A stretch of DNA of 64,000 bases from Candidatus Aminicenantes bacterium (GCA_963783665.1 CAWANZ010000002.1:971701-1035700), one strand, 5' to 3'. Shown: positions 2,372 through 62,734, counted from the stretch's first letter. The notes: generated by a model from the letters alone, not told the origin. Translations and numbers: made by a program.

Positions 2372-3272
2372 TCACTCGTAAAAGGCGCCGGTATCGATCC
2401 AGTCCTTTTTCAGCACGGACCAGAAATCCTCGGCCAGGCCCCGCCGGACATATTCGTAGGGCAGCCAGCCATATCCTTTTTCGCCCCAGCCCTCCCCCCA
2501 GGAATTGCGGATGAGGAGGCGCCCCGGTCGCTCGGCTTTCTCCCGGTCTTTCCCCGTATTTGATTTTGATTCGGTCGTCATAGCCCACGGCGACAACGGC
2601 ATGTCCGCCCAGAATGCGCTCCTTCGGGCCGGGGAACGGGATCGCCCCCCGGGCGTCCGCCGTTTCGATCGAGCTGTAAACAGTGAACCCGAACATCGAC
2701 GGATGCCCGGAGACAAGGTGGGCTTTGATCCGGTCGAGGGTCTCCGCCGCGGGATTCCCGGGGAGATCGTGGCGGAAGTATTGGATCGTCTTGAAGTTCT
2801 GGGCGAACGCATAGCAGAAGGACGGCGGCTCGCGGTCGAACGCGTCCGGGCCGTCGTCGTACGGCCAGTGCTCCTCGGGCGGCACGCCGAACAGGACCAT
2901 GGCTCCGATCGTCGTCCGGAGGTAGGCCCCGGTATCGCCTTCGACCTTCATCAGGTTGCGGGCCGCCTTGTAGAGAAAGAGCCGGGAGGCGTCCAGGTGC
3001 CGACCGAAGGCCCGGCGCTCATAGTATTCGATGACCCCGATGCCGGCGTTGGCCGTGCACGAGCCGAGACCGCCCTGGTCCTCGACGGGCGGGCAAGCGG
3101 CCCGGAGGTCGACCGAAGCCGGCGCGGGCTTCCCGCCTTCCGACGGCCCGCAAATTTTCCGCCCCGGTGGCCGCCCGGGTATCAACACGCCGCGAACGAC
3201 GGCGTGATCCTGCGAGATAATCCCGGAAATCCGGGAATGTCCGGAATCCAGCCAAAACATGCGACGGGACAT
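2372..3272 (-). CDS. papain-like cysteine peptidase (family C1); frame change near 2520-2545
   Basis: All three catalytic-region motifs are present: QGGLGSCTANAG (Cys), GGHAVVAVGYDD (His) and NSWGEGWGEKGYGWLPYEYV (Asn/Trp). The first two lie in ORF 2319..3419 and the last in ORF 2372..2812, so a single frame change joins them. The start is chosen at MSRRMFW (3272); an alternative start is at 3260. Confidence 0.65.
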
Positions 3273-29143: not shown

Positions 29144-29479
29144 GCGGCTGCGAAGTCCCGGCTATTCTACCATTTGCCGGAAGGCGGAAACAACCGGAAC
29201 CATCTTAGCGTATTTCCATCCGTCGTTTTTTCCCCTTTTTGCCTGTCGAAGAACGACCCTACATTTGGGATTTTTGAAAACACTTGGCTCGTCTTCGCAT
29301 ATTGTTCTTCGCCGCAATCCAGGATCGGAAAGCCGGTACAAATTACCGGCCTCGAATTAGAGACCGACCGAATAGGCCGCCATATTCTCGTAACTACGAC
29401 CCACACAAATCCGGACATGAGTACCAAAAATAGTTCTATTAATTGGATAATTTCACTTGAGAAAAATCAACAAAACCCC

Positions 29480-29509
29480 TTGACAAACTAAATATCATAA
29501 TGATATCAT
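29480..29509 (+). promoter_or_regulatory. putative sigma70-type promoter with an overlapping palindromic operator, upstream of the SPFH gene
   Basis: TTGACA (29480-29485), 18-nt spacer, extended -10 TGaTATCAT (29501-29509). Palindrome atatcat-a-atgatat at 29492-29506. AGGAGGA RBS at 29521-29527, then ATG 29532. The local GC is well below the window average. Confidence 0.35.
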
Positions 29510-29531
29510 TTCGATATCTCAGGAGGATCAC

Positions 29532-30408
29532 ATGATCAATATCAAGGAAAAAAAGGTATTTCAGATCAGCGGATGGGCCGTTCTGGCGATCGACATCGTC
29601 GTCGTCGCTTTCGCCCTGTCGTTCTTCATCAACATCACCGATCCGCCGATCGACGTCGCTTTTCTCCTCCGCGTGGGCTGCATGCTTCTCGTCGGCTTGA
29701 CCGTACCGGGCTTTTTCATCCTTAATCCCAACGAAGCCATGGTTTTCACCTTTGTCGGCCGGTACATCGGCTCGGCCCGGACGGCCGGATTCCACTGGAC
29801 CAATCCGTTCTGCGCCAAACACCGGGTGACCCTCCGCGTCTCCAACCTCGTCAGCGAAAAGATCAAGGTCAACGACGCCTGCGGCAATCCGATCGAAATC
29901 GCCGCCGTCATCGTCTGGCACGTCATCGATACGGCCAAAGCGAAGTTCAACGTCGATAACTACAAGAACTTCGTCGCCATCCAGAGCGAAACGGCCGTCC
30001 GCCAGCTGGCCAGCCATTATCCTTATGACTCCCACGAAACCGACCATGGAGTCGCTCCGGACCAATCCCGACCAGATCTCCGAAAAATTGCGGGATCAGG
30101 TCCAGGAACGCCTGGAAGTCTCGGGCGTCAACGTCGTCGAGGCCCGGCTGATGCACTTGGCCTATGCTCCCGAAATCGCCCAGGTCATGCTCCGTCGCCA
30201 GCAGGCCGAAGCCATCATCGCCGCCCGGCGGCAAATCGTCGACGGCGCCGTCGGCATGGTCGAAATGGCCCTGAAAAATCTCGAAGTCTCGGGCATGGTC
30301 CAACTCGATAACGATAAAAAGGCGGCCATGGTCAACAACCTCCTGGTCGCCCTGGTTTCCGAGAACGAAGCGACCCCCGTCATCAACACCGGCACCCTGT
30401 ACGCTTGA
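29532..30408 (+). CDS. SPFH / band-7 (stomatin-prohibitin-like) membrane protein; one frame change near 30040
   Basis: N-terminal TM ([20 protein letters not shown]). SPFH core: [29 protein letters not shown] ... [48 protein letters not shown]. The C-terminal coiled-coil part lies in ORF 30025..30408. Confidence 0.75.
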
Positions 30409-30414
30409 CCTCCG

Positions 30415-30624
30415 ATGGCCGATAAAAAGAAATTCCTGTTGCGGCTCGACGGCGAGCTCTACGACGCCCTGGAGAAATGGGCGGCCGATGAGCTCCGCAG
30501 CGTCAACGCCGAGATGGAATTTCTGCTGAAAGAAGCGGTCCGCAAGTCCGGCCGCTTCAAGGCTTCAAGCCCGGCTCCGACGCCGGGCTCGAAGCCCTCC
30601 CCCGATATGCAGGAACAACCTTAG
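30415..30624 (+). CDS. small ribbon-helix-helix (Arc/MetJ-like) DNA-binding protein
   Basis: 69 aa starting 7 nt after the SPFH stop. MADKKKFLLRLDGELYDALEKWAADELRSVNAEMEFLLKEAVRK has the RHH beta-alpha-alpha pattern. Confidence 0.45.
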   Translation: MADKKKFLLRLDGELYDALEKWAADELRSVNAEMEFLLKEAVRKSGRFKASSPAPTPGSKPSPDMQEQP

Positions 30625-30687
30625 AAATCGAAAAAGATAACGGGATCGAACGGGCGTTCCGAGGACCGAACGCCGAGGAGAGGGACA

Positions 30688-32096
30688 ATGAGTCTCAAGA
30701 AGCTGGCCATTCTCATCATCGTGATCGTCCTGACGATCATCGTGGCCATCTCATGCAAAACGCAAAACATCATGCGGGGGGCCCATCGGGAAGACCGGGC
30801 CGGATGGACGTTGGTCCACCTGGAAGGCGCCTCCCGGGAGATCGGCTACCAGCACGGCCGGTTGCTTGCGGCCGAGATCGACGACCTTTTAAAAGCGATG
30901 GCGGTCAACCTGGAAAAGACCACCGGGCGCGACTGGCCGTTCTTCCGCAAGGCGGCCGAAACCATCCTCTGGCCGAAGATCGATCGGCCGGTTCAAATGG
31001 AGATCGAAGGCATCGCCGAGGGGCTTGCAGGCCGGGATCCCCGGATTGAAGTATGATCGATTCGATATCGCCGCCCTCAACGGCTGGATGGAGCTGGCCT
31101 GGTACTACGTCCCCGTCCTCGAGGCCGAAAATAAAGGGACGGCGGTCGAATCGAAGGCCCCCCCGTCCTGCAGCGCCTTCATCGCCACCGGGAGCTATAC
31201 CGCGGACGGCCGGATCGTCATCGCCCACAATATCTGGATGGATTACCTTACGGGCGAGCGGTGGAACGTGATCCTGGACATCGTCCCGGACACCGGGCGG
31301 CGGATGCTCATGGACGCCCTGCCGGGATTCGTCCACAGCGGCTCGGACTTCGCCTTTAACGACGCCGGTCTCCTGTTCACGGAGACGACGATCGCCAAGT
31401 ACGCCGGCTTCAATAAGGACGGCGTCCCCAGCTTCTCCCGCTCCCGCACGGCCGCCCAGTACGCCGCTTCCATCGACGATTTCATCCGCATCATGACGAC
31501 GAACGGAAACGGGGCGATGGCGAATTCCTGGCTGATCGGCGATCTGAACGCCAACGAAATCGCCCGGCTCGAGCTCGGGCTGAAAAACCACCGGGTCTGG
31601 CGGACGGGCGACGGGTATTTCGTCGGATCCAATTTCCCCTCCGACGAGAAGCTGATCGCCGAGGAAACAACCTTCGACCCGGGCGACGGGAGCCAATCGG
31701 TCTTCGTCCGGCGGGACCGCTGGGAGCAGCTCATGGCCGAAAATAAAGGGAAAATCGACATCGAAAAAGCCATGGCCTTCCTCGGCGACCATATCGATCC
31801 GAGAACGGGCGAAACCGCCGCGGGCGCCGACGCGACTCTGCGGGCATGTCGACCGGGATCCCAAAGGCGCGCCGGAATTCTTTTATCCGCCCTTCTGCCC
31901 GGCCGGCTCGACTCAGGGCAAGGCCACTTCGGCCGCCTTGGCCGAACAGATGAAATTCTGGGCCCGGATGGGCCACGCCTGCGGCGAGGATTTTGCGGCC
32001 GAGCCGTTTGCCGCCGCCCATCCCGAATTCGCCTGGCAGCTTCCTTACTTGAAAGACATGAAAGCCCATCCCTGGACCCTCTTCCAGGGGAAATGA
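30688..32096 (+). CDS. peptidase C45 / acyl-CoA:6-APA acyltransferase-like Ntn-hydrolase lipoprotein; two frame changes
   Basis: Lipoprotein signal MSLKKLAILIIVIVLTIIVAISC. Putative N-terminal nucleophile context PPSCSAFIATGSYTADGRIVIAHNIWMDY. The family-typical length and motifs are spread over ORFs 30688..31056 and 31025..32107 plus a third frame that ends ...HPWTLFQGK at the stop 32094-32096. Confidence 0.6.
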
Positions 32097-32109
32097 ATTC
32101 GGAATAATT

Positions 32110-32167
32110 CGGGGCCAGGTTACTCAACTCCCGAACCCGAGATCGGGAGTTGAGTAACCTGGCCCCG
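32110..32167. repeat. perfect palindromic element (MITE/REP-like): 25-bp arms cggggccaggttactcaactcccga with a 7-nt spacer
   Basis: Left arm 32110-32134, spacer acccgag, right arm 32143-32167 is the exact reverse complement, followed by atctttt. It lies 14 nt after the C45 stop. The same arms recur at 37861-37919 (full), 37297-37321 (half) and a diverged relative at 33892-33976. It also creates two artefactual ORFs that start MSNLAP on both strands. Confidence 0.8.
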
Positions 32168-32234
32168 ATCTTTTACCGATCTATTATGGAATATCGGCTT
32201 CCGCTGATCGTCTTTTTATTGGAGAATAAAGACG

Positions 32235-32748
32235 ATGGCTGGACCGGCGACCACCCCGCGCATCGAAGACCTTCTCCCCTTGCGGGAGGAGGTTTTCCTG
32301 TTATGCCTGGGATTTTCCCGGAATGCCGCCGTCGCCGAAGACCTCTGCCAGGACGTTTACCTCAAGGCCTGCCGAAAGCTCGATTCGGTCCGTCATCCGG
32401 AGGCGGTCCGGTTCTGGCTTTTCCGGCTGGCCCGGAACGTCTGCCGCGACCACTATCGCCGGAGCCGCCTGGTCGGTTTCGACCCGCTCGATTCCCGGGC
32501 TGACCTCGCCGCCGCCTCGAACGGGGGCGAGCCGGACGATTTCGAGGATCGTCTCGTCCGCCTGAAATCGTCGGTCGAAATCCTGCCCCAGAAAGCTCCG
32601 CGAAGTCTTCATTCTCCGCACCTACGCCCGTCTCTCCTACGAAGACGTGGCCCGGACCTTGCGGATCAAGGAAGGAACGGTCATGTCCCGGCTCCACCGG
32701 GCCCGGGCGGCCGTCGCCCGGACGATGAGCGAGGAACACCATGGATGA
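32235..32748 (+). CDS. ECF-type RNA polymerase sigma factor (sigma-70 regions 2 and 4); one frame change near 32590-32620
   Basis: Region 2: AEDLCQDVYLKACRKLDSVRHPEAVRFWLFRLARNVCRDHYRR. Region 4 is found by re-translation: LREVFILRTYARLSYEDVARTLRIKEGTVMSRLHRARAAV. GGAGA RBS at 32218. The stop at 32746-32748 overlaps the next start by 8 nt. Confidence 0.8.
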
Positions 32749-33295
32749 ACGCAAAGGGGAAAAGCCAATCGTGACGGCCGAAGAGGAAATCGAGGCCGTC
32801 GTTCAGAGGGAGTCGGCGGAAGCACTCGAGCGGTTCCGTTCCGGCGATTTCGCCGCCCGCTTGAAATCCCGGCTTGAGGGTCCCCTTCCCCGGCAACCGT
32901 TTTTCCTGTTCCGCAGGCCGGTCCTTATCCCTGCCGTCGGCCTTCTCGTGCTGGCCGCCGCGGCTCTCATCATCGTCTTTCCGCCGGACGGGGGGAACGG
33001 GCGTTTGGAGGCCGGCTTCCGTTTCATGACCGAGGTCCTGGCCCAAACGGATCTGTTACGCGATGACGGCCGCTTGCCGTTCGCTGGCCGACCTTCCACG
33101 CTCCCGTCCGAACGGCCCGCCTCGACGTTCACCGAAGCCCTGATCTGGATCGCGTCCCAAAAGGAAACCAGCTCGCCGGAGGGAAGCGCTCCGCTCCGCC
33201 CCCTCTTCACCCCAAATGAACGGTTCAAGATTCTCTTCGGGGATCAAGCCATCCTCAGGGTTCTCACGATGCTTTCAACTCAAAAGGAGGGTTGA
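32741..33295 (+). CDS. putative anti-sigma factor (single-pass membrane protein cotranslated with the ECF sigma)
   Basis: Start overlaps the sigma stop (ATGGATGA). One TM segment (VLIPAVGLLVLAAAALIIVF) separates an N-terminal cytoplasmic part from a C-terminal part. No conserved motif was recognised. Confidence 0.45.
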   Translation: MDERKGEKPIVTAEEEIEAVVQRESAEALERFRSGDFAARLKSRLEGPLPRQPFFLFRRPVLIPAVGLLVLAAAALIIVFPPDGGNGRLEAGFRFMTEVLAQTDLLRDDGRLPFAGRPSTLPSERPASTFTEALIWIASQKETSSPEGSAPLRPLFTPNERFKILFGDQAILRVLTMLSTQKEG

Positions 33296-33296
33296 C

Positions 33297-33817
33297 ATGC
33301 TGCGCAAATCCGTCGGATTGATTCTTCTCTGCGTCTTGGCCTCCGGCCTGATCGCCGGCGGCCGAGGGGCCCGCCCCGGTTTCAAAAAAGGCGGGCTATG
33401 CCCTGCTCGACCTGTACATCACCATGTTCAAAATCATGGCCCTGACGGGTTCCGGATCGAGCGAAGCGGTTCAATCGGAACTCGACAAAATGGTGGCTGA
33501 AGCTAAAAAATCGAAAGCCGCCGGCGAAATCGACGCGCGTCTACTATGCCCGCTACACCCGAATGATCGGAATCACGAAGCTGATCATGCTCAAGGATCC
33601 GCAGAAAGCGATCGAGGCGTTCATTAATAATGAGCTTAGCCGGTTCGTAATGGAGAACGTCGGCGAGGAGCTAAAAACTGAAGGGCCCGGCGCAATCGGT
33701 CAGATGGCCAATGCCATGGCCTTTGCCATCGTCGACCTCCAGATCTACCTGGACACGCTCGACAGCCGCCAAGCCCGCTATGACAAATTCGTGAAAGGCG
33801 TTTCCCCGGCTAAATAA
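33297..33817 (+). CDS. small secreted hypothetical protein in the sigma/anti-sigma operon; two frame changes
   Basis: AAAAGGAGG RBS at 33282-33290, ATG 33297. Signal peptide MLRKSVGLILLCVLASGLIA. The remainder is assembled from ORFs 33424..33627 and 33563..33817 (KIMALTGSGSSEAVQSELDKMVAEAKKS ... LIMLKDPQKAIEAFINNELSRF ... ARYDKFVKGVSPAK). Confidence 0.45.
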
Positions 33818-33846
33818 TCCCGGACCGCGGTTTCTTTCGTCCTCCG

Positions 33847-33889
33847 CCCCGGACCGGTTTCCCCACGAAAACCGGCCCGGGGCTTTTTA
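33847..33889 (+). terminator. rho-independent terminator-like hairpin followed by a T run
   Basis: ccccggaccggttt-ccccacg-aaaccggcccgggg, followed by cttttta. It lies immediately after the 33817 stop. Confidence 0.55.
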
Positions 33890-33891
33890 TT

Positions 33892-33976
33892 GGTGCCAGG
33901 TTAACCATTCCCCGATTAATTCAAATCTCCGGCGTTCGCGAAATAGGAGAATGGTTAACCTGGCACCGATTAAATA
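33892..33976. repeat. second palindromic element related to the 32110 family: 20-bp terminal inverted repeats around a 44-bp core
   Basis: tggtgccaggttaaccattc (33892-33911) and its exact reverse complement gaatggttaacctggcacca. The arms align with cggggccaggttactcaactcccga (shared gccaggtta-c-c...tcccga). The right flank cgattaaatac is tandemly duplicated. Confidence 0.7.
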
Positions 33977-34015
33977 CCGATTAAATACCAACGCCGGCCA
34001 GCGAAAAAAAATCGC

Positions 34016-34053
34016 TTGACATTTCGCCGCTCTGTATTATATTATTAATACAG
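34016..34053 (+). promoter_or_regulatory. sigma70-like promoter with an overlapping GntR-type operator palindrome, upstream of the GntR gene
   Basis: TTGACA (34016-34021), 16 nt, TATATT (34038-34043). Palindrome ctgtatta-tattat-taatacag (34032-34053) of the t-GT-N-AC-a type. GGAGG at 34059-34063, then GTG 34070. Confidence 0.5.
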
Positions 34054-34069
34054 TGATACGGAGGCGAAC

Positions 34070-34471
34070 GTGATCAACATCGATCCGGCAAGTTTTATTC
34101 CCCTTTACGAACAGGTCAAATCCGGCCTCCGGCGCGAAATCGCCCTCGGGTCTCTCAAGCCCGGCGGTCCCCTTCCCTCGATCCGCGACTTGGCCGCCGC
34201 CCTCCTCATCAATCCCAACACGGTGGCCCGGGCTTACACCGAGCTCGAGCGGGACGGACTGATCACGACCCGGAAGGGTCGCGGCTGTTTCGTATCGGAG
34301 GATTCCGGGGCCCTCCCCGGAAAGGAACAAGCCCAGCGCCTCGACGGAATCTTCGAGGCGGCCATCCAGGAAGCCCGAAAAACCGGGGCCGACCCGAACG
34401 AAATCCGCAAGGTCTTCGAGGACCGGCTGCGGTTTGTTTTCGCGGAACCCGGCAAAAGGAGGACGTCATGA
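34070..34471 (+). CDS. GntR-family transcriptional regulator, YtrA-like short subfamily
   Basis: Winged-helix PLYEQVKSGLRREIALGSLKPGGPLPSIRDLAAALLINPNTVARAYTELERDGLITTRKGRGCFV, plus a short (about 60 aa) C-terminal region. The stop overlaps the ABC ATPase start. Confidence 0.8.
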   Translation: MINIDPASFIPLYEQVKSGLRREIALGSLKPGGPLPSIRDLAAALLINPNTVARAYTELERDGLITTRKGRGCFVSEDSGALPGKEQAQRLDGIFEAAIQEARKTGADPNEIRKVFEDRLRFVFAEPGKRRTS

Positions 34472-35372
34472 GCGACCTGTTGAAAATCTCAGGACTCGGC
34501 AAGGACTTCGGCCGGAAGAAGGTCCTGCGCGACGTAACGCTCACCCTCGAGCCCGGCCGCGTGTACGGTTTATTGGGGCGCAACGGCGAAGGCAAAACAA
34601 CCCTGGCCCGGATCCTGATGGGCGTCATCCCCGCTTCCCGGGGCGTCGTGGTGTTCAAAGGCGAAAAAATCGACTTCCGCTCCGCCTCTTACAAGCGGGA
34701 GATCGGCTACATCCCGGAGGACCCGTTCTTTTACAGCGAGATGAAAACCGGGGAATTCCTCAAGTTCAACAGCCGTTTCTATCCCCGGTGGGACGCAGCC
34801 CGGGTTCGTTCCAACGTTCGAATCGCTCGGTCTTGACCCGAAGGCTCGCATCAGCGACATGTCCCGCGGCCAGAAGCTCCAGCTCGGATTCGTGGCCGCC
34901 GTCGGAGCGGCTCCGGACGTCCTCCTCCTCGACGACCCGACCTCCGGCCTTGACGTCCCGACCCGGCATGATTTCCTCCGCAACATCATCCGCGACCTGG
35001 CCGAACGCGGAACGGCGATCCTCTTCGCCACCCACATGGTCCACGAGCTGGAGCGGGTCGTCGACCACCTGTTTATCCTCCAGGGCGGCCGGATCACGCT
35101 CGACCGGAGCTTCGAGGACGTTAAAACCCTCGCCCGGCGCATCCGCCTTCGCTTCGACGGCGCTCCGCCGGATAAGCTCCCGATCGAAGGCGTCCTATCG
35201 CTCAAAAGGGAACCGGGCCTGCTCGAAGCGATTGTCTTTCCCTGGGACGAGAAAGCCCGAAAATCAAATTCGCTCCCTTTCTCTGACCCATTTCGAAATC
35301 GAGCCGCTTTCGCTCGAAGAGATTTTCACGGGATTCGTCGGTTCCGGTCCGGGCCGCCCGGACGCAAAATAA
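34468..35372 (+). CDS. ABC transporter ATP-binding protein; two frame changes
   Basis: Walker A GRNGEGKTTLARIL. Signature/Walker B region MSRGQKLQLGFVAAVGAAPDVLLLDDPTSGLDV and H-loop FATHMVHELE lie in the frame of ORF 34859..37294. The C-terminus ...LSLEEIFTGF reads to a stop at 35370-35372 in a third frame. Confidence 0.75.
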
Positions 35373-35383
35373 GGGATAAAGCC

Positions 35384-37294
35384 ATGAATAAAAACCTGAT
35401 ATTGAAGGAATGGAAGGAAAAGCTCTGGGTTCCGATTTTCGCCCTGGTTTTTCTCGTCCTGTTCGCGATCGCCGCCGTCGCTTTTGCCAAGCACGGAGAC
35501 ATCCTCGATTATCTGACCGGCGGGATCCAGATTTTCTTCCTCCCGCTCATCGGCGTCCTCCTCGGGGCGAGCGCCTTCAGTGCCGAATTCAAGGACGGCT
35601 CCTGGGCTTATCTCTTTTCCCGGCCGATTAAAAAATCCTCGATCTGGATTTCGAAATTCGCCGCCCTGGCCGGCCTGCTGGCCGCAATCGTCGCCTTCAC
35701 GTATCTCATCCTTCCCCTCATCCCCGGCTTCAAAGAACGCCTGGCCGAAGCGCCGCTCTGGGGACTCAGCCTTTTTATTTCGTTCAGCGTGTATATCGCT
35801 TCCTTCTCCCTGGCCTATCTCTCTGAAAAGCCGGTCCTCACTTTTTTTCTGACGCTCTTTATCTTCACCGCCTTTGCCGTTCTCGCGGTACTCCTTATAA
35901 AAGCCCTCGACTTTTCTTCTTTCAGGTCCCGCTCCCTTCAGGACGTGCCGTTTCTTGTGATTCTATTCACCTTTCTGGGCATTTTCGCCCTCGGTGCGGC
36001 TTCGCTTTACGCCTTCTGCCGGACGGATTTTTCCCGCCCACAGTCCAAGATCTCCGGATTCCTGAAATCCCTCGTCGTCTTCCTGGCCATCGGGACGGTT
36101 ACCGGCGGCGCTGGATGGCTCATCGCCCGGCAATTCCCGCGCCCAACGTTTATTCGCATGATTTCCGACGGAGAAGGTTCCATACTGCATCTCAACCGGG
36201 GAGTCTTCCGTTATGATTCCCAGCGCAATCGGTTGGAGAAATTGATCCGTTTCCAAAGACAATACTGGCTTGCCAGCCCCGCAGTCGGCGGCGGAAAAAT
36301 CACATGGGCCAAGGAATCAGTCAAAGGTTCAAGGCAGCGGCTAACTTGGGACCAAGAGCTCTGGATCATGGATATCGATGGCCGCAACAAACGGGCTATT
36401 TTTCATACCTCAGACAAGCCCGATTCCCCGCTTGCCGGAGACATGATTTATCATCTCAGTGTCTCACCCGATGGGAAACGGCTGATTCTGGTTTCCGATC
36501 CGGGATCACGATCGGGACATAAAAGAATTTGTAGCCTCAACAACGATGGGACGGGTCTTCGCTTCTACAGCACCGATCTTACTTACCTCGACTGGATCAA
36601 CGGCCTGTGCTGGTCATCAGACAGTCGAAGGATCGTGTTCGCGGCGACGATCAGACCGTCTGAAAGAGCTTCAAACAAACAAACGATCCGATATTTTCTC
36701 CTGGACCTGGAGGCCGGAGAATGGACCATGCCGCCCGAAGACCTCAGAGGATTCTCTGTCTATGGCGCGTCGCCAGATGGCAAATTGCTGGGTTACTTCG
36801 GGACCGACACGGCCGATGCCGCCTCCCCGAAAGAGATGCTCCGCTATTACAATATCGATACAAACGCAATTTCCGACATCGTCGCCGTTTCGCGCATCCA
36901 GTTGGCTAAATGGAGCCCGGCGGGTGATCGGATCGCTTTCCTTGCCGACTCCGGCCGCCGCCTGGGAATCATATCCGTTTCTGAAAAAACGCTTCTTGCG
37001 GAAACAGCCCTTGAAAAAGCCGAAATTGAAGCCCGCATTCCGAGGTCCATGGCCTGGACCTTGGACGGACAGAAGATCATTCTGGCCGATTTCCGCAATT
37101 CCGTACACGTCCTGCGGATCTTCGATCAGGCTCTCCGCGAAATCAAATCATTCCCCATTCCTCGGGAAGATATCCCTCTCGAGCATCTCCCGCAGCTTTA
37201 CTCGACCGGGGATAAGATCCTCGTTATGGATTTCACCGCCTCCCGGCTCTGGTCCTTCGACCCGGCCACGGAGAAGTGGAAGAAGCTGCTTTGA
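35384..37294 (+). CDS. ABC-2-type permease (6 TM) fused to a C-terminal TolB-like beta-propeller (PD40/WD40-like repeats)
   Basis: Intact 636 aa within the frame of ORF 34859..37294, from MNKNLILKEWKEKLWVPIFALVFLVLF. Six hydrophobic segments up to about aa 290. Then repeated HLSVSPDGKRLILVSD / YGASPDGKLLGYF / AKWSPAGDRIAFLADS motifs typical of TolB/PD40 blades. Confidence 0.65.
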   Translation: MNKNLILKEWKEKLWVPIFALVFLVLFAIAAVAFAKHGDILDYLTGGIQIFFLPLIGVLLGASAFSAEFKDGSWAYLFSRPIKKSSIWISKFAALAGLLAAIVAFTYLILPLIPGFKERLAEAPLWGLSLFISFSVYIASFSLAYLSEKPVLTFFLTLFIFTAFAVLAVLLIKALDFSSFRSRSLQDVPFLVILFTFLGIFALGAASLYAFCRTDFSRPQSKISGFLKSLVVFLAIGTVTGGAGWLIARQFPRPTFIRMISDGEGSILHLNRGVFRYDSQRNRLEKLIRFQRQYWLASPAVGGGKITWAKESVKGSRQRLTWDQELWIMDIDGRNKRAIFHTSDKPDSPLAGDMIYHLSVSPDGKRLILVSDPGSRSGHKRICSLNNDGTGLRFYSTDLTYLDWINGLCWSSDSRRIVFAATIRPSERASNKQTIRYFLLDLEAGEWTMPPEDLRGFSVYGASPDGKLLGYFGTDTADAASPKEMLRYYNIDTNAISDIVAVSRIQLAKWSPAGDRIAFLADSGRRLGIISVSEKTLLAETALEKAEIEARIPRSMAWTLDGQKIILADFRNSVHVLRIFDQALREIKSFPIPREDIPLEHLPQLYSTGDKILVMDFTASRLWSFDPATEKWKKLL

Positions 37295-37296
37295 AT

Positions 37297-37321
37297 TCGG
37301 GAGTTGAGTAACCTGGCCCCG
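37297..37321. repeat. solo half-copy (one arm) of the 32110-type palindromic element
   Basis: tcgggagttgagtaacctggccccg begins 3 nt after the permease stop (tga 37292-37294). The flanks gaat...gaatta match the full copy at 37861. Confidence 0.6.
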
Positions 37322-37341
37322 AATTATCGGAATGCGGAAGA

Positions 37342-37839
37342 CTAAAAGAACACGGCGACGGCGATGCCGACGAGCCAGCCGGCTAAAACGTCCGAAAAAT
37401 AATGCATCCCTAGGATGATCCGGGAAACCCCGACGGCCAACGCCCAAAGAACGACCGCCGCTCCAATAGCCGGCGACAAGTAAATGACCGCTAGCACGGC
37501 GAGAATCGCCGCCCGATTGGCATGTCCTGAGGGGAAGGAATGCGGGTCGACCAGGCGGTCAAACGCGCCCCAGCGCCCGTCAGGCCGGCGCCGTTTGAAC
37601 GCGAGCTTTAGCAAGCCGGTCAAAAACGTCCCAATCACCAGGGCTAACCCCGCTTTCCAGGCTCCGGCTTTCCATGGATCTTTGGTGAACAACCAGATCA
37701 ATCCGGCCGCCGGAAAAAGAATAGTCGTGTCGGCCGTATGGGCTAGGACGGCGAAAATCCACCGCCCCCTCCCCTCCCCCATTTTATGCAGCCGGGCGCT
37801 CCCTTCCGCGTCCCGGCGAATCAAACTTTCGAATATCAT
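37342..37839 (-). CDS. PAP2-superfamily phosphatase (membrane, acid-phosphatase / undecaprenyl-PP-phosphatase-like)
   Basis: Intact 165 aa. PAP2 motifs KLAFKRRRP, PSGH and SRIILGMHYFSD. Confidence 0.75.
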   Translation of the reverse strand: MIFESLIRRDAEGSARLHKMGEGRGRWIFAVLAHTADTTILFPAAGLIWLFTKDPWKAGAWKAGLALVIGTFLTGLLKLAFKRRRPDGRWGAFDRLVDPHSFPSGHANRAAILAVLAVIYLSPAIGAAVVLWALAVGVSRIILGMHYFSDVLAGWLVGIAVAVFF

Positions 37840-37860
37840 TCACCGGTATTATAACGAAAT

Positions 37861-37919
37861 CGGGGCCAGGTTACTCAACTCCCGAATTCGAATTCGGGAG
37901 TTGAGTAACCTGGCCCCGA
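37861..37919. repeat. second full copy of the palindromic element; a perfect 59-bp palindrome
   Basis: cggggccaggttactcaactcccga-attcgaat-tcgggagttgagtaacctggccccg. The spacer completes the palindrome (cccgaattcgaattcggg). It lies in the divergent region between the PAP2 (minus) and kbl (plus) starts. Confidence 0.8.
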
Positions 37920-37996
37920 ATTACTTTCCTTGTGGTATCATGATGTCAGACGGCTGCCCGGACGGCCGGGCCTGACCGGGCACGAGGAGGATTCCC

Positions 37997-39259
37997 ATGT
38001 ATCAGCGCATTAAATACGACTTCGCCCAGGAACTGGTCAAGATCAAGAGCTCGGGGCTGTATAAAGAGGAGCGGACCATTCTGTCCGAGCAGAAGCCCAA
38101 CATCCGGGTGGAGTTTCCGACCGGAAGCGAACCGCGCGACGTCTTGAACTTCTGCGCCAACAACTACCTCGGATTGGCCAACCATCCGAAGATCATCGAG
38201 GCCGCCCGCAAAGCCCTGGACGAGCACGGCTTCGGCATGGCCTCGGTCCGGTTCATCTGCGGAACGCAGGACCTCCACAAAACCCTCGAGCAGAAAATCG
38301 CCGCGTTCTTCCATATGGAAGACACGATCCTCTATTCCTCCTGCTTCGACGCCAACGGCGGCCTGTTCGAAACCCTCCTCGGCGTGGAGGACGCGGTCGT
38401 CACCGACTCTCTCAACCACGCCTCGATCATCGACGGCATCCGCCTGTGCAAAGCCAAGCGCTTCATCTACGACCACGCCGATATGGCCTCGCTCGAGAAA
38501 GCCCTGAAGAAAGCCCGCGAAGGCATGGACGTCTGGGACGGGCCCGGCCTGGACAAGGAGCCCGTTCCGGCCCGGAACATCATGATCGTCACCGACGGCG
38601 TTTTTTCCATGGACGGCGACATCGCCGACATCCGCCGGATCGTCGAGCTGGGCAACACCTACGACACCCTCGTCGTCGTCGACGATTCCCACGGCACCGG
38701 CGTCCTCGGGGCCACCGGCCGCGGCTCGGTCGAGGAAGCGGGCATGCTCGGCCAGGTCGACGTCATCACCTCGACCCTGGGCAAGGCCATGGGCGGGGCG
38801 ACCGGCGGCTTCATCACCGGCCGCCGCGAGATCATCGAGATCCTCCGCCAGAAATCCCGGCCTTACCTTTTCTCCAACACCGTCGCCCCGGTCATCGTCG
38901 CCGCCGGCATCGCCGCCTTCGACCTCCTCGCCCAGGGCCAGGGGCTGCGGGAGAAGCTCAAGGAAAACACCCTCTACTTCCGCGGCGCGATGAAATCCCT
39001 CGGGTTCGACATCATCGACGGCGTCCACCCGATCGTCCCGGTTCTTTTCCGCAAATTCGAAAACGACGCCAAGCTGGCTCAGCAGATGGCCCGGGCGCTG
39101 TACGAGGAAGGGATTTATGTCGTCGGATTCGTTTTCCCGGTCGTGCCCAAGGGCCAGTCCCGGATCCGCGTCCAGGTTTCCGCCGCCCATACCCGGGAGC
39201 AGATGGACCAGGCGATCCGGGCCTTCGAAAAAGTCGGCCGCAATCTCGGCGTGATCTGA
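37997..39259 (+). CDS. kbl: glycine C-acetyltransferase (2-amino-3-ketobutyrate CoA ligase), PLP-dependent
   Basis: Intact 420 aa. Near-collinear with E. coli Kbl: NFCANNYLGLANHP ... HGFGMASVRFICGTQDLHKTLEQKIAAFFHMEDTILYSSCFDANGGLFETLLG ... LNHASIIDGIRLCKAKR. The PLP-lysine region is STLGKAMGGATGG. Confidence 0.85.
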   Translation: MYQRIKYDFAQELVKIKSSGLYKEERTILSEQKPNIRVEFPTGSEPRDVLNFCANNYLGLANHPKIIEAARKALDEHGFGMASVRFICGTQDLHKTLEQKIAAFFHMEDTILYSSCFDANGGLFETLLGVEDAVVTDSLNHASIIDGIRLCKAKRFIYDHADMASLEKALKKAREGMDVWDGPGLDKEPVPARNIMIVTDGVFSMDGDIADIRRIVELGNTYDTLVVVDDSHGTGVLGATGRGSVEEAGMLGQVDVITSTLGKAMGGATGGFITGRREIIEILRQKSRPYLFSNTVAPVIVAAGIAAFDLLAQGQGLREKLKENTLYFRGAMKSLGFDIIDGVHPIVPVLFRKFENDAKLAQQMARALYEEGIYVVGFVFPVVPKGQSRIRVQVSAAHTREQMDQAIRAFEKVGRNLGVI

Positions 39260-59164: not shown

Positions 59165-60317
59165 TCTCTCCGCGACACGGTTTCTCTTTTCCTTGACAGG
59201 CTCTTTAAGGCCGCGTTATATTCAGTTCATCGAACTGATAGGGCGGGGCATGAAACGCAAACGCGGAATTCGGGCGGCGGTGATGGTCGGCTTGGCGAAA
59301 ACGATACCCTCCGGAGCTCTTCGCCAATGATATCCAACGGCTAATCGTGGATGCGGGCATCAACCTGGCGGTTGTGGCAGGCGCAGGTAGAATTGTTCGA
59401 CACGCCTTCCACCGATCGCTGCCAGGTTTCCTACGCCACGAATGCGTTCAATGCCATTGTGGAAATCCGAAGCCGGCTCATCGGCCCCATGGACAATATC
59501 AACCTGCAGTCCGATCTCGATCAAATCAGCATGTACCCGGCCGCCACGGAAAGTCAGAGCGCCGTCACCGGGCGAGCAATGTCCACGGCATTTACTGGCT
59601 GTTGCGAAGCCGGCTGTCCGTGCTCTTCCTTTCGACCCGCGGGATTTACGCCAGCCCGAATTGCGACAGCTCCTTTCTGGACGTCGGCTATTACTTAGGC
59701 CGGGGGCGGATAGGAGCCTTTGCAAACAACGAATACGTGATGTCGAACGCTCCCGCGCCATGATGCTCGAGGCCATCGGGGCTGGAAAAGACTTGGCTGT
59801 GCGCTGCCCCTGCACCTACAACGTGGAAAACGCGGTGGGGAGCGATTCCATGGTCAACGCCAGAACCTTGGAGGATTTGAGAAGCTCGTCGAACCGAGCA
59901 AGGGGACCGCGGCCGTAGCTTAACTGGTTTTCCCGAGGGATCTCCGATTTCGCCCTGGTCCCCGCTCAGTTCCACTCCCCCTCCGCCTGCGCCGAATCCT
60001 TCGGCTTCCCTCCTCGGGACGTGGAGGATAGGAGACCGGGTCGACCACGATTTTCGCCCAGGCGGGGAATATGAATATCGGGACAGCACAAAACCTGGCG
60101 TCTGTCTTAATTAATCTCGGCTACCGAGAAGGGATGAACATTCCGAATTCACGGGCGGTTCCCAGGGCGTTTATACGGGCCAGATGAACATACGTGGCTG
60201 CAGACGGCAATTTCCTTGCAAAAATTGGCGCGTCACGGTGAGCGGGAACACGGCCACGTTAAGCGATATGTTCGAAGGGGGCCGGGCCACGTATACCGCC
60301 ACAGAATCCAGTGATAT

Positions 60318-60470
60318 TCCCCCCTTACTGATAAAGGGGAATTCGTGAGAGTAGGACGAGGGCGCCTCGCAAGACTCAACCATAAATTCTCTACCCCACC
60401 TACCGCCCCTAATACAGGGGCGGACGGCAGGACGGCGCCCCTCAGTGAAAGTACGAGGGGGGGGGGATTA
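60318..60470. repeat. third locus of the composite GC-hairpin repeat family (one alpha-like and one beta unit) at the border of the AT-rich islet
   Basis: ccccccttactgataaagggg hairpin (60319-60340). ctaccccacctaccgcccctaatacaggggcggacggcagg (60395-60435; stem ccgcccc/ggggcgg), followed by a G10 homopolymer (60457-60466). Confidence 0.55.
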
Positions 60471-60822
60471 GAATAATCACGGCCGCCTGCCTGATAATAG
60501 TCATTTCTCGGGGAAATATGCCGCGGACAGACCGTCATTGAGCGCCACAAATAGACACTCTCTGTTACATTTTGAGGGACATTATTTCCGTTCAAATATT
60601 CCCTTCGAAAATAGTCTCTGCGGACCGCAATGAGGTTCGTGGCGCGTCAGTCTACCCTACCGTCTATATCACTCTCCTGGACGCAGAAATATATCAAGGC
60701 GTACTTTATTAAAAAGAGATTCTCGGCATTCAAAGAGAAAATATATGTTGATATATATTATTTTCGCTTCTCAAGCATTAAATCGGATTATTATTCAACC
60801 TTACCGTTATATTCGATAATTC

Positions 60823-61943
60823 TCATTCATATATACCTTTGATTAAGTTGTAATTATTAATTTTCACTATTACTAATTTACTTTTTTCTTCATCATCACT
60901 ATTATTTTTTATTATTGCATATATCATTCCTTCCTTAATTACCTTCGGAAATACTGGAAATTGCACTTTATATAAATAAAGCGCATCTTTCCCAATAATA
61001 TCAATCTCCTCTTGAATATCGTCATCGATTATCGATTTTTTTCTCTAATAACATATATTAGTCCTTTTTCATCGGATAGCAAACCACTTATAAAAGGACG
61101 ATTTTCAGGAATATTAGGAGTAATTTTTATTTGTACTCCAGATATTTTAGTATTATTCACTATCTTTTCTATTGCGTTTTTCTCTTCGATGCTAACTTTT
61201 TGGGGTTTTTGTTTTATCGAAATAGATTCTTTCATCGTCCCGTCTTCATCATATGAAAACACTTGATAATTTGTATTATCTGCGTACAACAAACCATTTT
61301 CATTTATTATTGAATAAAAGGCTCGTTTTTTATAAGGGTGACTAATAGATATATTTATCTCACTTATTTTTGTGCTATTTTCATCAATACTCAATGAAAC
61401 GATTTGCCTTTCAGCCTTTCCATTTGAATTTATTTTATATAATGCAAGCTCATTATTATTGCTCACATCTCTTCTCATCGTATACATTAAACACATTTTA
61501 TTAATACATACATCGTATTCTGGAAGTAATAATAAATTAATATTTTTTTGAAACGTTAGATTTTTGTCAAATAAGACAATTTTATATCTATCAAATATAT
61601 AAATGTTTCCCAAATAATCACAAGATACTTTATTGGGTATTTGTTGAAACTCTCCAGGCTCTTGCCCGAATATGAATTTTTTACTAACGATTATTTCACT
61701 ATCTTTGCTAATTTTTAATATATAAGCATTCGTAATCGCAATAATATTTTCCTCAATATCTACATCAAAATCATATGCCTCATAGTTTTCAGTATTATTA
61801 ATAAATATTGGAAATTCAAGTACAGTTTTTTGCTCATACTCAAGAAGAAATTCTCCATATATTGGCTTTGGCATATTAATAATACTTTTAATATTATCGA
61901 ACGAAGCAATAATAATATTAAATAACAATATTAGAGAAATCAT
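60823..61943 (-). CDS. low-GC lipoprotein-like beta-propeller protein (resembles Bacteroidetes 6-bladed beta-propeller / BF3164-type lipoproteins); one frame change at a T7 run
   Basis: About 30% GC versus about 65% for the window. AGGAGGA RBS, then ATG 61943. N-terminal hydrophobic MISLILLFNIIIASF. Repeated blade-like IYIFDRYKIVLFD / GLLYADNTNYQVFSYDEDG motifs. The ORF stops at 61029, but one extra T in the T7 run (61036-61042) continues it for 69 codons (KKSIIDDDIQEEIDIIGKDALYLYKV ... NYNLIKGIYE) to a stop at 60823-60825. Confidence 0.55.
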
Positions 61944-62204
61944 ACTTTCCTCCTAATAATGGCAGTGTTAGGAAATCTGTGTAAACCGCTTATTTCCATT
62001 TACGCTTGTCCCCCCATCCGATCATCGAAATATATCATTAACTGGGAATATATCAGTAGCGCAGTCTCTCTGCCGAAAGGTCCATTATTTCTGCAGCATC
62101 TTCCACGGTGAGGAAGACTTGTTTGAGGCTCTGGATCGGATTCATTGTATAGACCATGATCCGGATTTCCGGAGGATATTTAAAAACAGACTAGGAGCGG
62201 TTGG

Positions 62205-62630
62205 CCGGAACTGCAGGAAATATTTTATTCCGAAGACGCGTGCCAAGATTTTTCTTTCCTAACTCCCAAGGGTCGTGAAGGACCGGCAAAGCCTCGAGAT
62301 CTTATCCCCCCTTCCCCCCTTACTAATAAGGGTGGAGTTTGTCAGCGCTAAGACCGGGGTGCTTTTAAGACTTTTCTTATTGGTATCTACCTATCCTACC
62401 TTCCCTAGGACTAGGGAGAGGACGGCTAAAGCCGGCAGGAAGTATTTTATTCCGAAGACGCGTGCCAAGATTTTTCTTAGACCTTATCCCCCCTCCCCCC
62501 TTCCAAGAAGGGGGGCCCAGAAAACTGAAAGTTAGCGCCCCTTTTGCCCGGAGCGCTCACAATTTTCCTTAGGTCTTATCCCCCCTTCCCCCCTTACTAA
62601 TAAGGGGGGAATTCGTCAGCGCTCCGGGAG
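62205..62630. repeat. array of composite GC-hairpin repeat units (three alpha hairpins, one beta-like unit and two AT-hairpin linker segments) directly 3' of tRNA-Ser(TGA)
   Basis: Linker ggaaatattttattccgaagacgcgtgccaagattttt occurs twice (62218-62255 and 62441-62478). Alpha units: cttatccccccttccccccttactaataagggtgg (62293-62330), cttatcccccctccccccttccaagaaggggggccc (62484-62520) and cttatccccccttccccccttactaataagggggg (62571-62607). Beta-like unit: cctaccttccctaggactagggagagg (62393-62420). The last unit ends 7 nt before the tRNA 3' end. Confidence 0.6.
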
Positions 62631-62636
62631 AGGTTT

Positions 62637-62724
62637 CGGAGGGAGGGGGATTCGAACCCCCGTTCCGGGGATACCGGAAAGCGGTTTTCAAGACCGCCGC
62701 CTTCAACCACTCGGCCATCCCTCC
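62637..62724 (-). tRNA. tRNA-Ser (anticodon TGA), class II
   Basis: Reverse complement reads GGAGGGA-TG-GCC-GAGTGGTTGAA-GGC-G-GCGGT-CTTGAAA-ACCGC-(long variable arm)-GGGGG-TTCGAAT-CCCCC-TCCCTCC-G. It has U33, anticodon UGA and A37. The listed ORF 62569..62778 on this strand is an artefact of it. Confidence 0.85.
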
Positions 62725-62734
62725 GATACTCATA

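Follow-up and report, generated by a model that had tools for sequence, protein, structure and literature searches.

REP/REPIN-like short repeats in Candidatus Aminicenantes and their probable link to a Y1 transposase of the RAYT/TIRYT type

The window analysed here is a stretch of 64,000 nucleotides (nt) from a Candidatus Aminicenantes bacterium (GCA_963783665.1, CAWANZ010000002.1:971701-1035700), which carries a family of short repeats, arranged as inverted doublets and as a singlet, around genes for a sigma factor, a GntR-ABC system and a PAP2 phosphatase. This family is REP/REPIN-like (repetitive extragenic palindromes, and doublets thereof that form hairpins) and of the type associated with terminal-inverted-repeat tyrosine transposases (TIRYTs), and it represents neither locus-specific terminators nor a classical miniature inverted-repeat transposable element (MITE). 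With rather high confidence, we regard the elements as short non-autonomous repeats of Aminicenantes-type bacteria (Acidobacteriota), most likely generated and homogenised by a Y1 HUH transposase of the RAYT (REP-associated tyrosine transposase) or TIRYT type. The system is a new example of an already known kind of miniature bacterial mobile DNA; a literature search found no paper linking REPs with Aminicenantes in the library covered.

The basic unit, hereafter type A, spans ~30 nt (ATTCGGGGCCAGGTTACTCAACTCCCGAAT) and occurs five times in the window, as two doublets and one singlet. Its 22-mer core (GGCCAGGTTACTCAACTCCCGA) was found at positions 32113 (+), 32143 (-), 37297 (-), 37864 (+) and 37894 (-), against an expected count of zero in 100 shuffles. 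A profile derived from all unit variants, including those of a diverged type B, retrieved seven units and no more from the whole 64 kb; they are confined to 32.1-37.9 kb, and the probability of four random sites clustering within such a span was P ~0.003. The first doublet (copy 1), which separates the stop codon of a phospholipase-B-like gene from an extracytoplasmic function (ECF) sigma factor gene, both on the + strand, had been described in an earlier note on this DNA as a perfect 58-bp palindrome. Its 26-nt arms (32109-32134 and 32143-32168) are indeed perfect; the spacer is non-palindromic and comprises 8 nt (ACCCGAGA) instead of 7. The other type-A doublet (copy 4), between the divergent starts of the PAP2 gene (37839, -) and an aminotransferase gene (37997, +), is as flawless as that note had claimed and one base longer than the 59 bp given there. 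The solo arm reported right after a stop codon corresponds to a type-A singlet in - orientation at 37295-37324, where the TGA stop of the upstream gene (37292-37294) overlaps the GAATTC of the unit. Finally, the diverged relative is a genuine type-B doublet, with perfect arms of 19 nt (33893-33911 and 33949-33967) around a 37-nt core, rather than 20-nt arms around 44 bp; with mismatches allowed, the arms reach 33 nt at 88% identity. Its two units differ at 3 of 26 positions, and it is placed directly after an intrinsic-terminator-like hairpin and upstream of a promoter-like TTGACA site of gntR. Two mirror-image open reading frames (ORFs) had also been attributed to the element, rightly so, since their TTG start codons lie inside the arms and yield (M)SNLAP.

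Folding as single-stranded DNA gave very stable hairpins for the full type-A copies, with -35.1 kcal/mol for copy 1 and -37.3 kcal/mol for copy 4 (z about -13; -12.9 and -13.8, respectively). The type-B doublet yielded -24.7 kcal/mol (z -6.7). A single unit folds weakly, at -4.6 to -6.1 kcal/mol (z -1.6 to -2.5), into a foot stem of 7-8 bp closed by a loop of 13-14 nt. This stem is kept or improved in the commonest T-to-C variant (TCGGGG...CCCCGA) and in the variant of L009 (GGTG...CACC; L numbers denote loci of other genomes and contigs), and the units of type B and of L039 lack it. A conserved intra-unit hairpin is thus only partly supported, given compensatory changes in some variants and the missing stem in type B and L039.

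The family extends well beyond the window. An exact-match scan located the 22-mer in 16 loci of two metagenome-assembled genomes (MAGs), with 12 copies in JAFGEN01, labelled 'Candidatus Aminicenantes', and 20 in CAYPKX01, labelled 'uncultured Eubacteriales', both counts being lower bounds as the MAGs are fragmented. The same scan detected it on 15 metagenome contigs and returned no match in viral contigs. Identical units are thus present between genes at dozens of unrelated places in a minimum of two further genomes and on many metagenome contigs, and orthologous sites are polymorphic, which bears out the proposal of a dispersed mobile or recombining repeat as opposed to evolved terminators. 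As to the host, CAYPKX01 ('uncultured Eubacteriales bacterium binchicken_co66_1'; loci L001-L003, L005, L006, L010-L013, L015, L016 and L041) agrees in gene order with both the window and Aminicenantes-labelled MAGs, to which it is 80-94% identical at the nucleotide level, and its Eubacteriales label looks wrong.

Across 32 sequences, 78 units were counted. They form 26 doublets, every one of them head-to-head (+ followed by -), and about 26 units are singlets. The doublet spacer measures 8 nt in 11 of the 26 and 15-93 nt in the remainder. The distribution is strongly extragenic: although ORFs of at least 200 aa take up 77.5% of the bases, 74 of the 78 units avoid their deep interior (P ~6e-43). 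A short stub, TCGGGGCC(A/G)A, recurs within 40 nt outside the unit at 20 of 74 units, usually 5-7 nt away, compared with a background expectation of 0.012 per flank. At the copy-1 site, the partial reiteration of the unit terminus in the outer flank reads gaattcgg-aataat in the window, gaattcgggccgataattgataat in L013 and agttcggggccaagaat in L021. Tandem reiterations of the unit terminus are likewise common, as exemplified by CGAATTAT in three copies in L004 and by CGATCTAT in L013.

Two units elsewhere, at L016:5534-5580 and L009:4010-4055, contain a GC-rich, hairpin-forming insert of ~20 nt (GCGTCGTCCCCCTTAGGGAC and GTGCCGCCCCCCTTTGGGGC, respectively) that falls exactly at the CCAGG/TTAC boundary of the unit; it may represent a mini-insertion nested within the unit or else an alternative form with a long loop. 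Another unit, of type B (L016:5635-5660), constitutes the start-codon region and the first ~10 codons of a cytochrome-c-like ORF (MREWLTWHRFF...); the orthologous start in L014 (~3085-3110) displays a degenerate version of it.

Polymorphism among relatives was found in the presence, type and spacing of units at orthologous sites. In L033, L034 and L035, the convergent genes overlap at cttTTAAaag and no unit is present, whereas the window holds an insert of 50 nt at this junction, which terminates the + strand ABC-permease-fusion ORF with a TGA and contributes the first base of TAG, the stop of PAP2. Comparison with these empty sites revealed no target-site duplication beside the insert. A third arrangement is seen in L041, L042 and L032, in which a 1.3-kb gene takes up this junction. 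It encodes 401 aa without a Pfam match (L041:3495-4700) and occurs neither in the window nor in L033-L035, so that the PAP2 3' junction exists in three states. At the copy-4 site, the close relatives L032, L041 and L042, whose PAP2 is at least 90% identical, show a mostly type-B array of three units (~135 nt) within conserved flanks. The site upstream of gntR is of type B in the window and is occupied in L013 (CAYPKX010000033) by a type-A' doublet with an 8-nt spacer; types A and B are reciprocally swapped between the window and this syntenic MAG. In L034, both arms at the copy-1 site share lineage-specific substitutions (GGGGACAGGTTACTCAATCCCCGA). L008 and L010 differ by a singlet, present in the former only, with spacers of 93 and 28 nt, respectively. 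Taken together, these differences show turnover and within-genome homogenisation rather than static hairpins.

L034 further lacks the gntR-ABC cassette. The possibility that this cassette is a mobile segment bounded by units was considered and rejected in that form, as the deletion ends, towards PAP2, ~87 nt within the adjacent gene and not at a unit. When positions 29476-37184 of the window were compared with L013, nucleotide identity amounted to 71-80% on the left and 94% on the right, and the jump fell exactly across the type-B doublet (~33.9 kb), which suggests a recombination boundary at the repeat. Right of the gntR region, the PAP2 gene is 89% identical to that of the syntenic MAG, and the aminotransferase side 81%.

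A candidate partner enzyme was identified in relatives. Locus L004 of JAFGEN01 contains an ORF of 222 aa (2442-3110) whose stop codon is inside a unit. Its product matches Pfam Y1_Tnp with 52.4 bits (cutoff 23); the best NCBIfam model is REP_Tyr_transpos (70.5 bits, E 1.3e-19), the IS200 model scores 18 bits only, and the sole relative in the PDB is E. coli TnpA-REP (4ER8). Invariant or nearly invariant in ten homologues are NHIH (the HUH motif), WQ, RYVENNPVRAG with the catalytic tyrosine, WSS (SS) and a TGRPxG..F...LE tail; relatives carry NHVH and YIELNP. In a database of 5.8 billion proteins, the closest homologues were those of L018 (77% identity) and of L023 and L027 (72%), which reside on contigs that the 22-mer scan had retrieved independently, with units 0-135 nt from the transposase genes. 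In L004, L023 and L027, trxB, lpxD and the transposase gene are found together with type-A units alongside, whereas the L018 contig ends inside lpxD and the contig of the second MAG breaks at lpxD.

More distant orthologues from L037, L038 and L039 (64%, 63% and 55% identity, respectively) have doublets of units particular to their lineage on either side of the gene, so that the association of transposase and repeat spans six related lineages and the unit sequence co-varies with the orthologue. Because type-B units flank the gene of L038, the diverged doublet of the window belongs to a sub-family cognate to the transposase of that lineage. Elsewhere in the 20-kb loci, one more doublet was found in L037 and four more units in L038, while L039 has none beyond the flanks of the gene. 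In L037 and L038 the gene is again beside lpxD and trxB, and in L039 it stands between other genes. Wherever enough flanking sequence was recovered, the lpxD-side location is accordingly kept among orthologues with 63-100% identity (L004, L018, L023/L027, L037 and L038), and the transposase gene is apparently single-copy, at one chromosomal locus in most lineages. This finding qualifies the earlier suggestion that the arms are the termini of an as yet unseen insertion sequence (IS): a transposase gene flanked by the same units does exist in relatives, yet it is a Y1 gene and apparently not a multicopy IS. The 3' ends of the transposase ORFs of L004, L018 and L037 read into units. As to the surroundings, trxB shares its strand with lpxD and the transposase gene in L004, L023 and L027, where it is upstream of both, but is found downstream and on the opposite strand in L037 and L038, with units at the junctions, indicating rearrangement around the locus.

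The L004-type transposase belongs to class 2 of the TnpA-Y1 superfamily and, judged by its motifs, probably to subclass 2.1, and the best match among known systems is the TIRtron/TIRYT class, equivalent to TnpA-Y1 subclass 2.1 and RAYT Group 1. TIRtrons consist of RAYT-like genes with flanking inverted repeats that are unrelated to GTAG REPs and often share GGGGWSAS; these repeats occur singly, as dimers and in groups, in families of moderate abundance, and Acidobacteria contain a sharply delimited group of such elements (Di Nocera et al. 2013, PMC3733652). Similarly, the enzymes described here, of 222-246 aa, are longer than canonical RAYTs and display HUH, Y...NP, SS and a conserved C-terminal tail. 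NHVH and YIELNP, present in the homologues, are among the motifs tabulated for subclass 2.1 (Table 1 of Quentin et al. 2018, PMC6006769), a likeness that reflects motif comparison and no phylogeny. The gene is flanked by inverted units overlapping its 3' end, copies are dispersed in moderate numbers as singles, dimers and groups, and the host phylum, Acidobacteriota, is the one already noted for a distinct TIRYT group. The unit begins with a GGGGWSAS-like motif; L034 and L037 (GGGGACAG) as well as L039 (GGGGACAC) match GGGGWSAS exactly, whereas type A (GGGGCCAG) departs from it by one mismatch and type B (GGTGCCAG) by two. Two features are not described for TIRtrons, namely the retention of the lpxD-side locus, from which only the L039 gene deviates, and the in-situ replacement of types at fixed intergenic sites.

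With REP/REPIN-RAYT systems (Nunvar 2010; Bertels and Rainey 2011, PMC3116915; 4ER8, PMC3479197), the family shares short, extragenic, over-represented repeats, inverted doublets that form long hairpins as REPINs do, in addition to singlets, a REPtron-like HUH/Y1 gene flanked by repeats and apparently single-copy at a fixed locus, a repeat sequence particular to each transposase lineage, and no target-site duplication. It differs from these gammaproteobacterial systems in the host phylum and in that the transposase possesses a C-terminal domain which E. coli TnpA-REP lacks. IS200/IS605 elements have in common with it the Pfam Y1_Tnp catalytic family, the expected recognition of hairpins and no target-site duplication; TTAC, the IS608 target, is found in the loop of the unit, which, like the ~20-nt inserts next to it in two copies elsewhere, is a resemblance only. 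Unlike IS200/IS605, the transposase is apparently not multicopy, occupies one conserved locus in most lineages and is poorly matched by the IS200 model; there is no tnpB, and the dispersed item is a repeat of 30-60 nt and not a gene.

Several observations weigh against an assignment to REP/REPIN-type repeats driven by such an enzyme. The unit and its conserved flanks lack GTAG, GTGG and CGTC on both strands, that is, the GT[AG]G or CGTC tag of REPs. A single unit is a poor palindrome, only weakly self-complementary by itself, and the one clean insertion comprises a singlet plus stub instead of a doublet. Copies seen amount to tens rather than hundreds, and the exact cores in the two MAGs, lower bounds as they are, are few for REPs. 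The L004 protein remains under the curated REP_Tyr_transpos cutoff (70.5 versus 80 bits). A tblastn search of the window detected no RAYT, so that the association is seen in relatives only, and none of the best 120 homologues was attributable to the assembly of the window itself. Finally, no REPs occur near subclass 2.1 genes according to Quentin et al. (PMC6006769), and Group 1 RAYTs are regarded as not REPIN-associated by Bertels et al. 2017 (PMC5581495).

By analogy with E. coli TnpA-REP and the TnpA of IS200/IS605 (PMC3479197, PMC6006769), we infer that the Y1 protein is the catalyst and that single-stranded intermediates are involved. The enzyme would recognise units in single-stranded DNA, cut and rejoin them, and thereby send them to intergenic sites with no target-site duplication; units at already occupied sites would be replaced or converted. 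Within RNA or single-stranded DNA, doublets can extrude hairpins of very high stability, which may act secondarily as mRNA 3'-end structures after the phospholipase-B-like gene (copy 1) and the ABC genes (singlet), and the copy-4 doublet may act as a cruciform in the PAP2/aminotransferase promoter region. A bolder version of this scheme, which we put forward tentatively and rate as somewhat less probable than its negation, would have a subclass-2.1/Group-1 RAYT, inherited vertically beside lpxD, uphold a genuine REPIN-like population in Aminicenantia, with successive masters (B, then A) overwriting the same intergenic sites. Compatible with it are the reciprocal exchange of A and B that distinguishes the window from CAYPKX010000033, the concerted changes in the L034 arms and the three-state PAP2 junction. 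If true, insertion would have to be targeted to repeats, or gene conversion driven by the transposase, as opposed to random intergenic insertion.

Of the alternatives, the one that survives best, although we deem it improbable, posits host-selected structural or protein-binding sites, for instance for a nucleoid protein or gyrase, as RNase-protection hairpins, or for a non-transposing Y1 nuclease or regulator, kept homogeneous through gene conversion and selection. Some sites are filled in all lineages examined, suggesting long residence over new insertion; they include the phospholipase-B/sigma spacer (window, L013, L021 and L034) and the site upstream of gntR (window, L013 and L033). In addition, the transposase gene stays at one chromosomal locus like a domesticated gene, and Group 1 RAYTs are held to be co-opted single-copy genes (Bertels and Rainey, bioRxiv 10.1101/2021.07.10.451892). 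Such sites are, however, hard to reconcile with a clean presence/absence of 50 nt where the genes of relatives overlap, with types that swap at fixed sites, with the L008 singlet missing from L010, with variable spacers and irregular stubs, and with units that overlap stop or start codons and show no positional regularity relative to promoters.

A classical MITE, i.e. a deletion derivative of an IS with a DDE transposase, mobilised in trans through 25-nt arms serving as terminal inverted repeats and leaving target-site duplications, appears very unlikely. It would account for the long perfect arms, the variable internal length, the solo arms and the intergenic positions, and the 11-bp tandem repeat beside one copy had been taken in the earlier note for a possible target-site footprint. 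That repeat (CGATTAAATAC) begins inside the type-B unit, in its terminal CCGA, and is one of many terminal reiterations beside copies, and the target-site duplications sought there are missing both at the clean insertion and beside the window doublets. Moreover, the sole transposase found beside units is the Y1 HUH enzyme, and no DDE gene was encountered between unit pairs in L004 or L016, where the ORFs are of ordinary housekeeping type. Least credible of all are locus-specific Rho-independent terminators or attenuators evolved in place, an explanation that draws on the position of copy 1 and the singlet just after stop codons, on the ATCTTTTA that follows copy 1 and on the very stable hairpins, and that is effectively refuted already by the dispersal of the same 22-mer over dozens of unrelated loci in other genomes, besides being at odds with a copy between divergent gene starts, with a consensus scan that called none of the units terminator-like, with a type-B doublet right after a separate conventional terminator-like hairpin, and with stems of 26-30 bp, which far exceed those of intrinsic terminators. 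Comparison with Rfam 15 at permissive thresholds produced only sub-threshold matches to generic miRNA-precursor hairpins (at most 37 bits versus cutoffs of 58-116).

REP/REPIN-like elements of this kind account for the unusual palindromes, the mirror-image artefact ORFs and some contig breaks in Aminicenantes-type assemblies, and they mark places where gene order and sequence identity shift between close relatives. For annotation, several stop and start codons come from the repeat itself. The findings widen the range of REP/RAYT-like systems by an uncultured lineage that has received little study and by the TIRYT/subclass 2.1 class of transposases, and the locus gains some value from the fact that the link of this class to dispersed repeats is disputed (PMC6006769 and PMC5581495 versus PMC3733652). 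The paired orthologous sites, empty versus filled and A versus B, provide concrete substrates for studying how such enzymes move or convert repeats.

The features of the window, with gene content assigned from Pfam, and the units flanking the more distant transposase genes are summarised in Table 1. The gene pairs around the four sites are co-directional, co-directional, convergent and divergent, respectively.

Table 1. Repeat elements, neighbouring genes and signals in the window, and flanking units of transposase orthologues in relatives.
Feature	Position	Strand	Remarks
Type-A doublet, copy 1, REPIN-like	32107-32170	.	Units 32107-32136 (+) and 32141-32170 (-)
Partial reiteration of unit terminus in outer flank of copy 1	32096-32106	+	GAATTCGGAAT; length varies among orthologues
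Type-B doublet	33889-33971	.	Units TTGGTGCCAGGTTAACCATTCCCCGA (+, 33890-33915) and TCGGTGCCAGGTTAACCATTCTCCTA (-, 33944-33969)
Tandem 11-nt reiteration, two copies	33967-33988	+	Begins in terminal CCGA of type-B unit
Insert of 50 nt relative to empty sites of relatives	37293-37342	-	Type-A singlet plus outer stub ATCGGAATGCGGAAGAC
Type-A doublet, copy 4	37858-37921	.	Perfect 60-nt palindrome at 37860-37919
Phospholipase-B-like gene	31025-32107	+	
ECF sigma factor gene	32235-32774	+	Followed by two small ORFs
Conventional terminator-like hairpin	~33848-33890	+	
Strong promoter-like site	34016	+	
gntR, ABC ATPase and ABC-2 permease genes	34070-37294	+	
PAP2 phosphatase gene	37342-37839	-	
Aminotransferase gene	37997-39259	+	
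Unit flanking L037 transposase gene			TCGGGGACAGATCACTCAATCCCCGA
Unit flanking L038 transposase gene			TCGGTGCCAGGTTTACTATTCCCCTA; type B
Unit flanking L039 transposase gene			CGGGGGACACAATACTCATTCACC

Several genes between 32235 and 37294 appear frameshifted or fused, which may be due to assembly indels or reflect pseudogenes. The sigma factor ORF matches region 2 only, the segment 33298-33817 has nine in-frame stops, and the ABC ATPase and permease genes correspond to overlapping ORFs (34434-35372 and 34859-37294). In the relative L033, by contrast with the fused-looking genes of the window, separate intact genes encode 300, 302 and 306 aa.

Farther along the window, a block of ~2 kb (60000-62725) has a GC content of 36%, compared with ~60% elsewhere. 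It contains two ORFs without a Pfam match (61029-61943 and 60233-60595, both -), adjoins tRNA-Ser(tga) (62636-62725, -) and serS, and may represent a small island that integrated next to the tRNA gene. Between this block and the tRNA gene, a second, unrelated hairpin repeat (CTTATCCCCCCTTCCCCCCTTACTAATAAGGGGGGA) is present in three copies, at ~62300-62336, 62484-62520 and 62577-62611.

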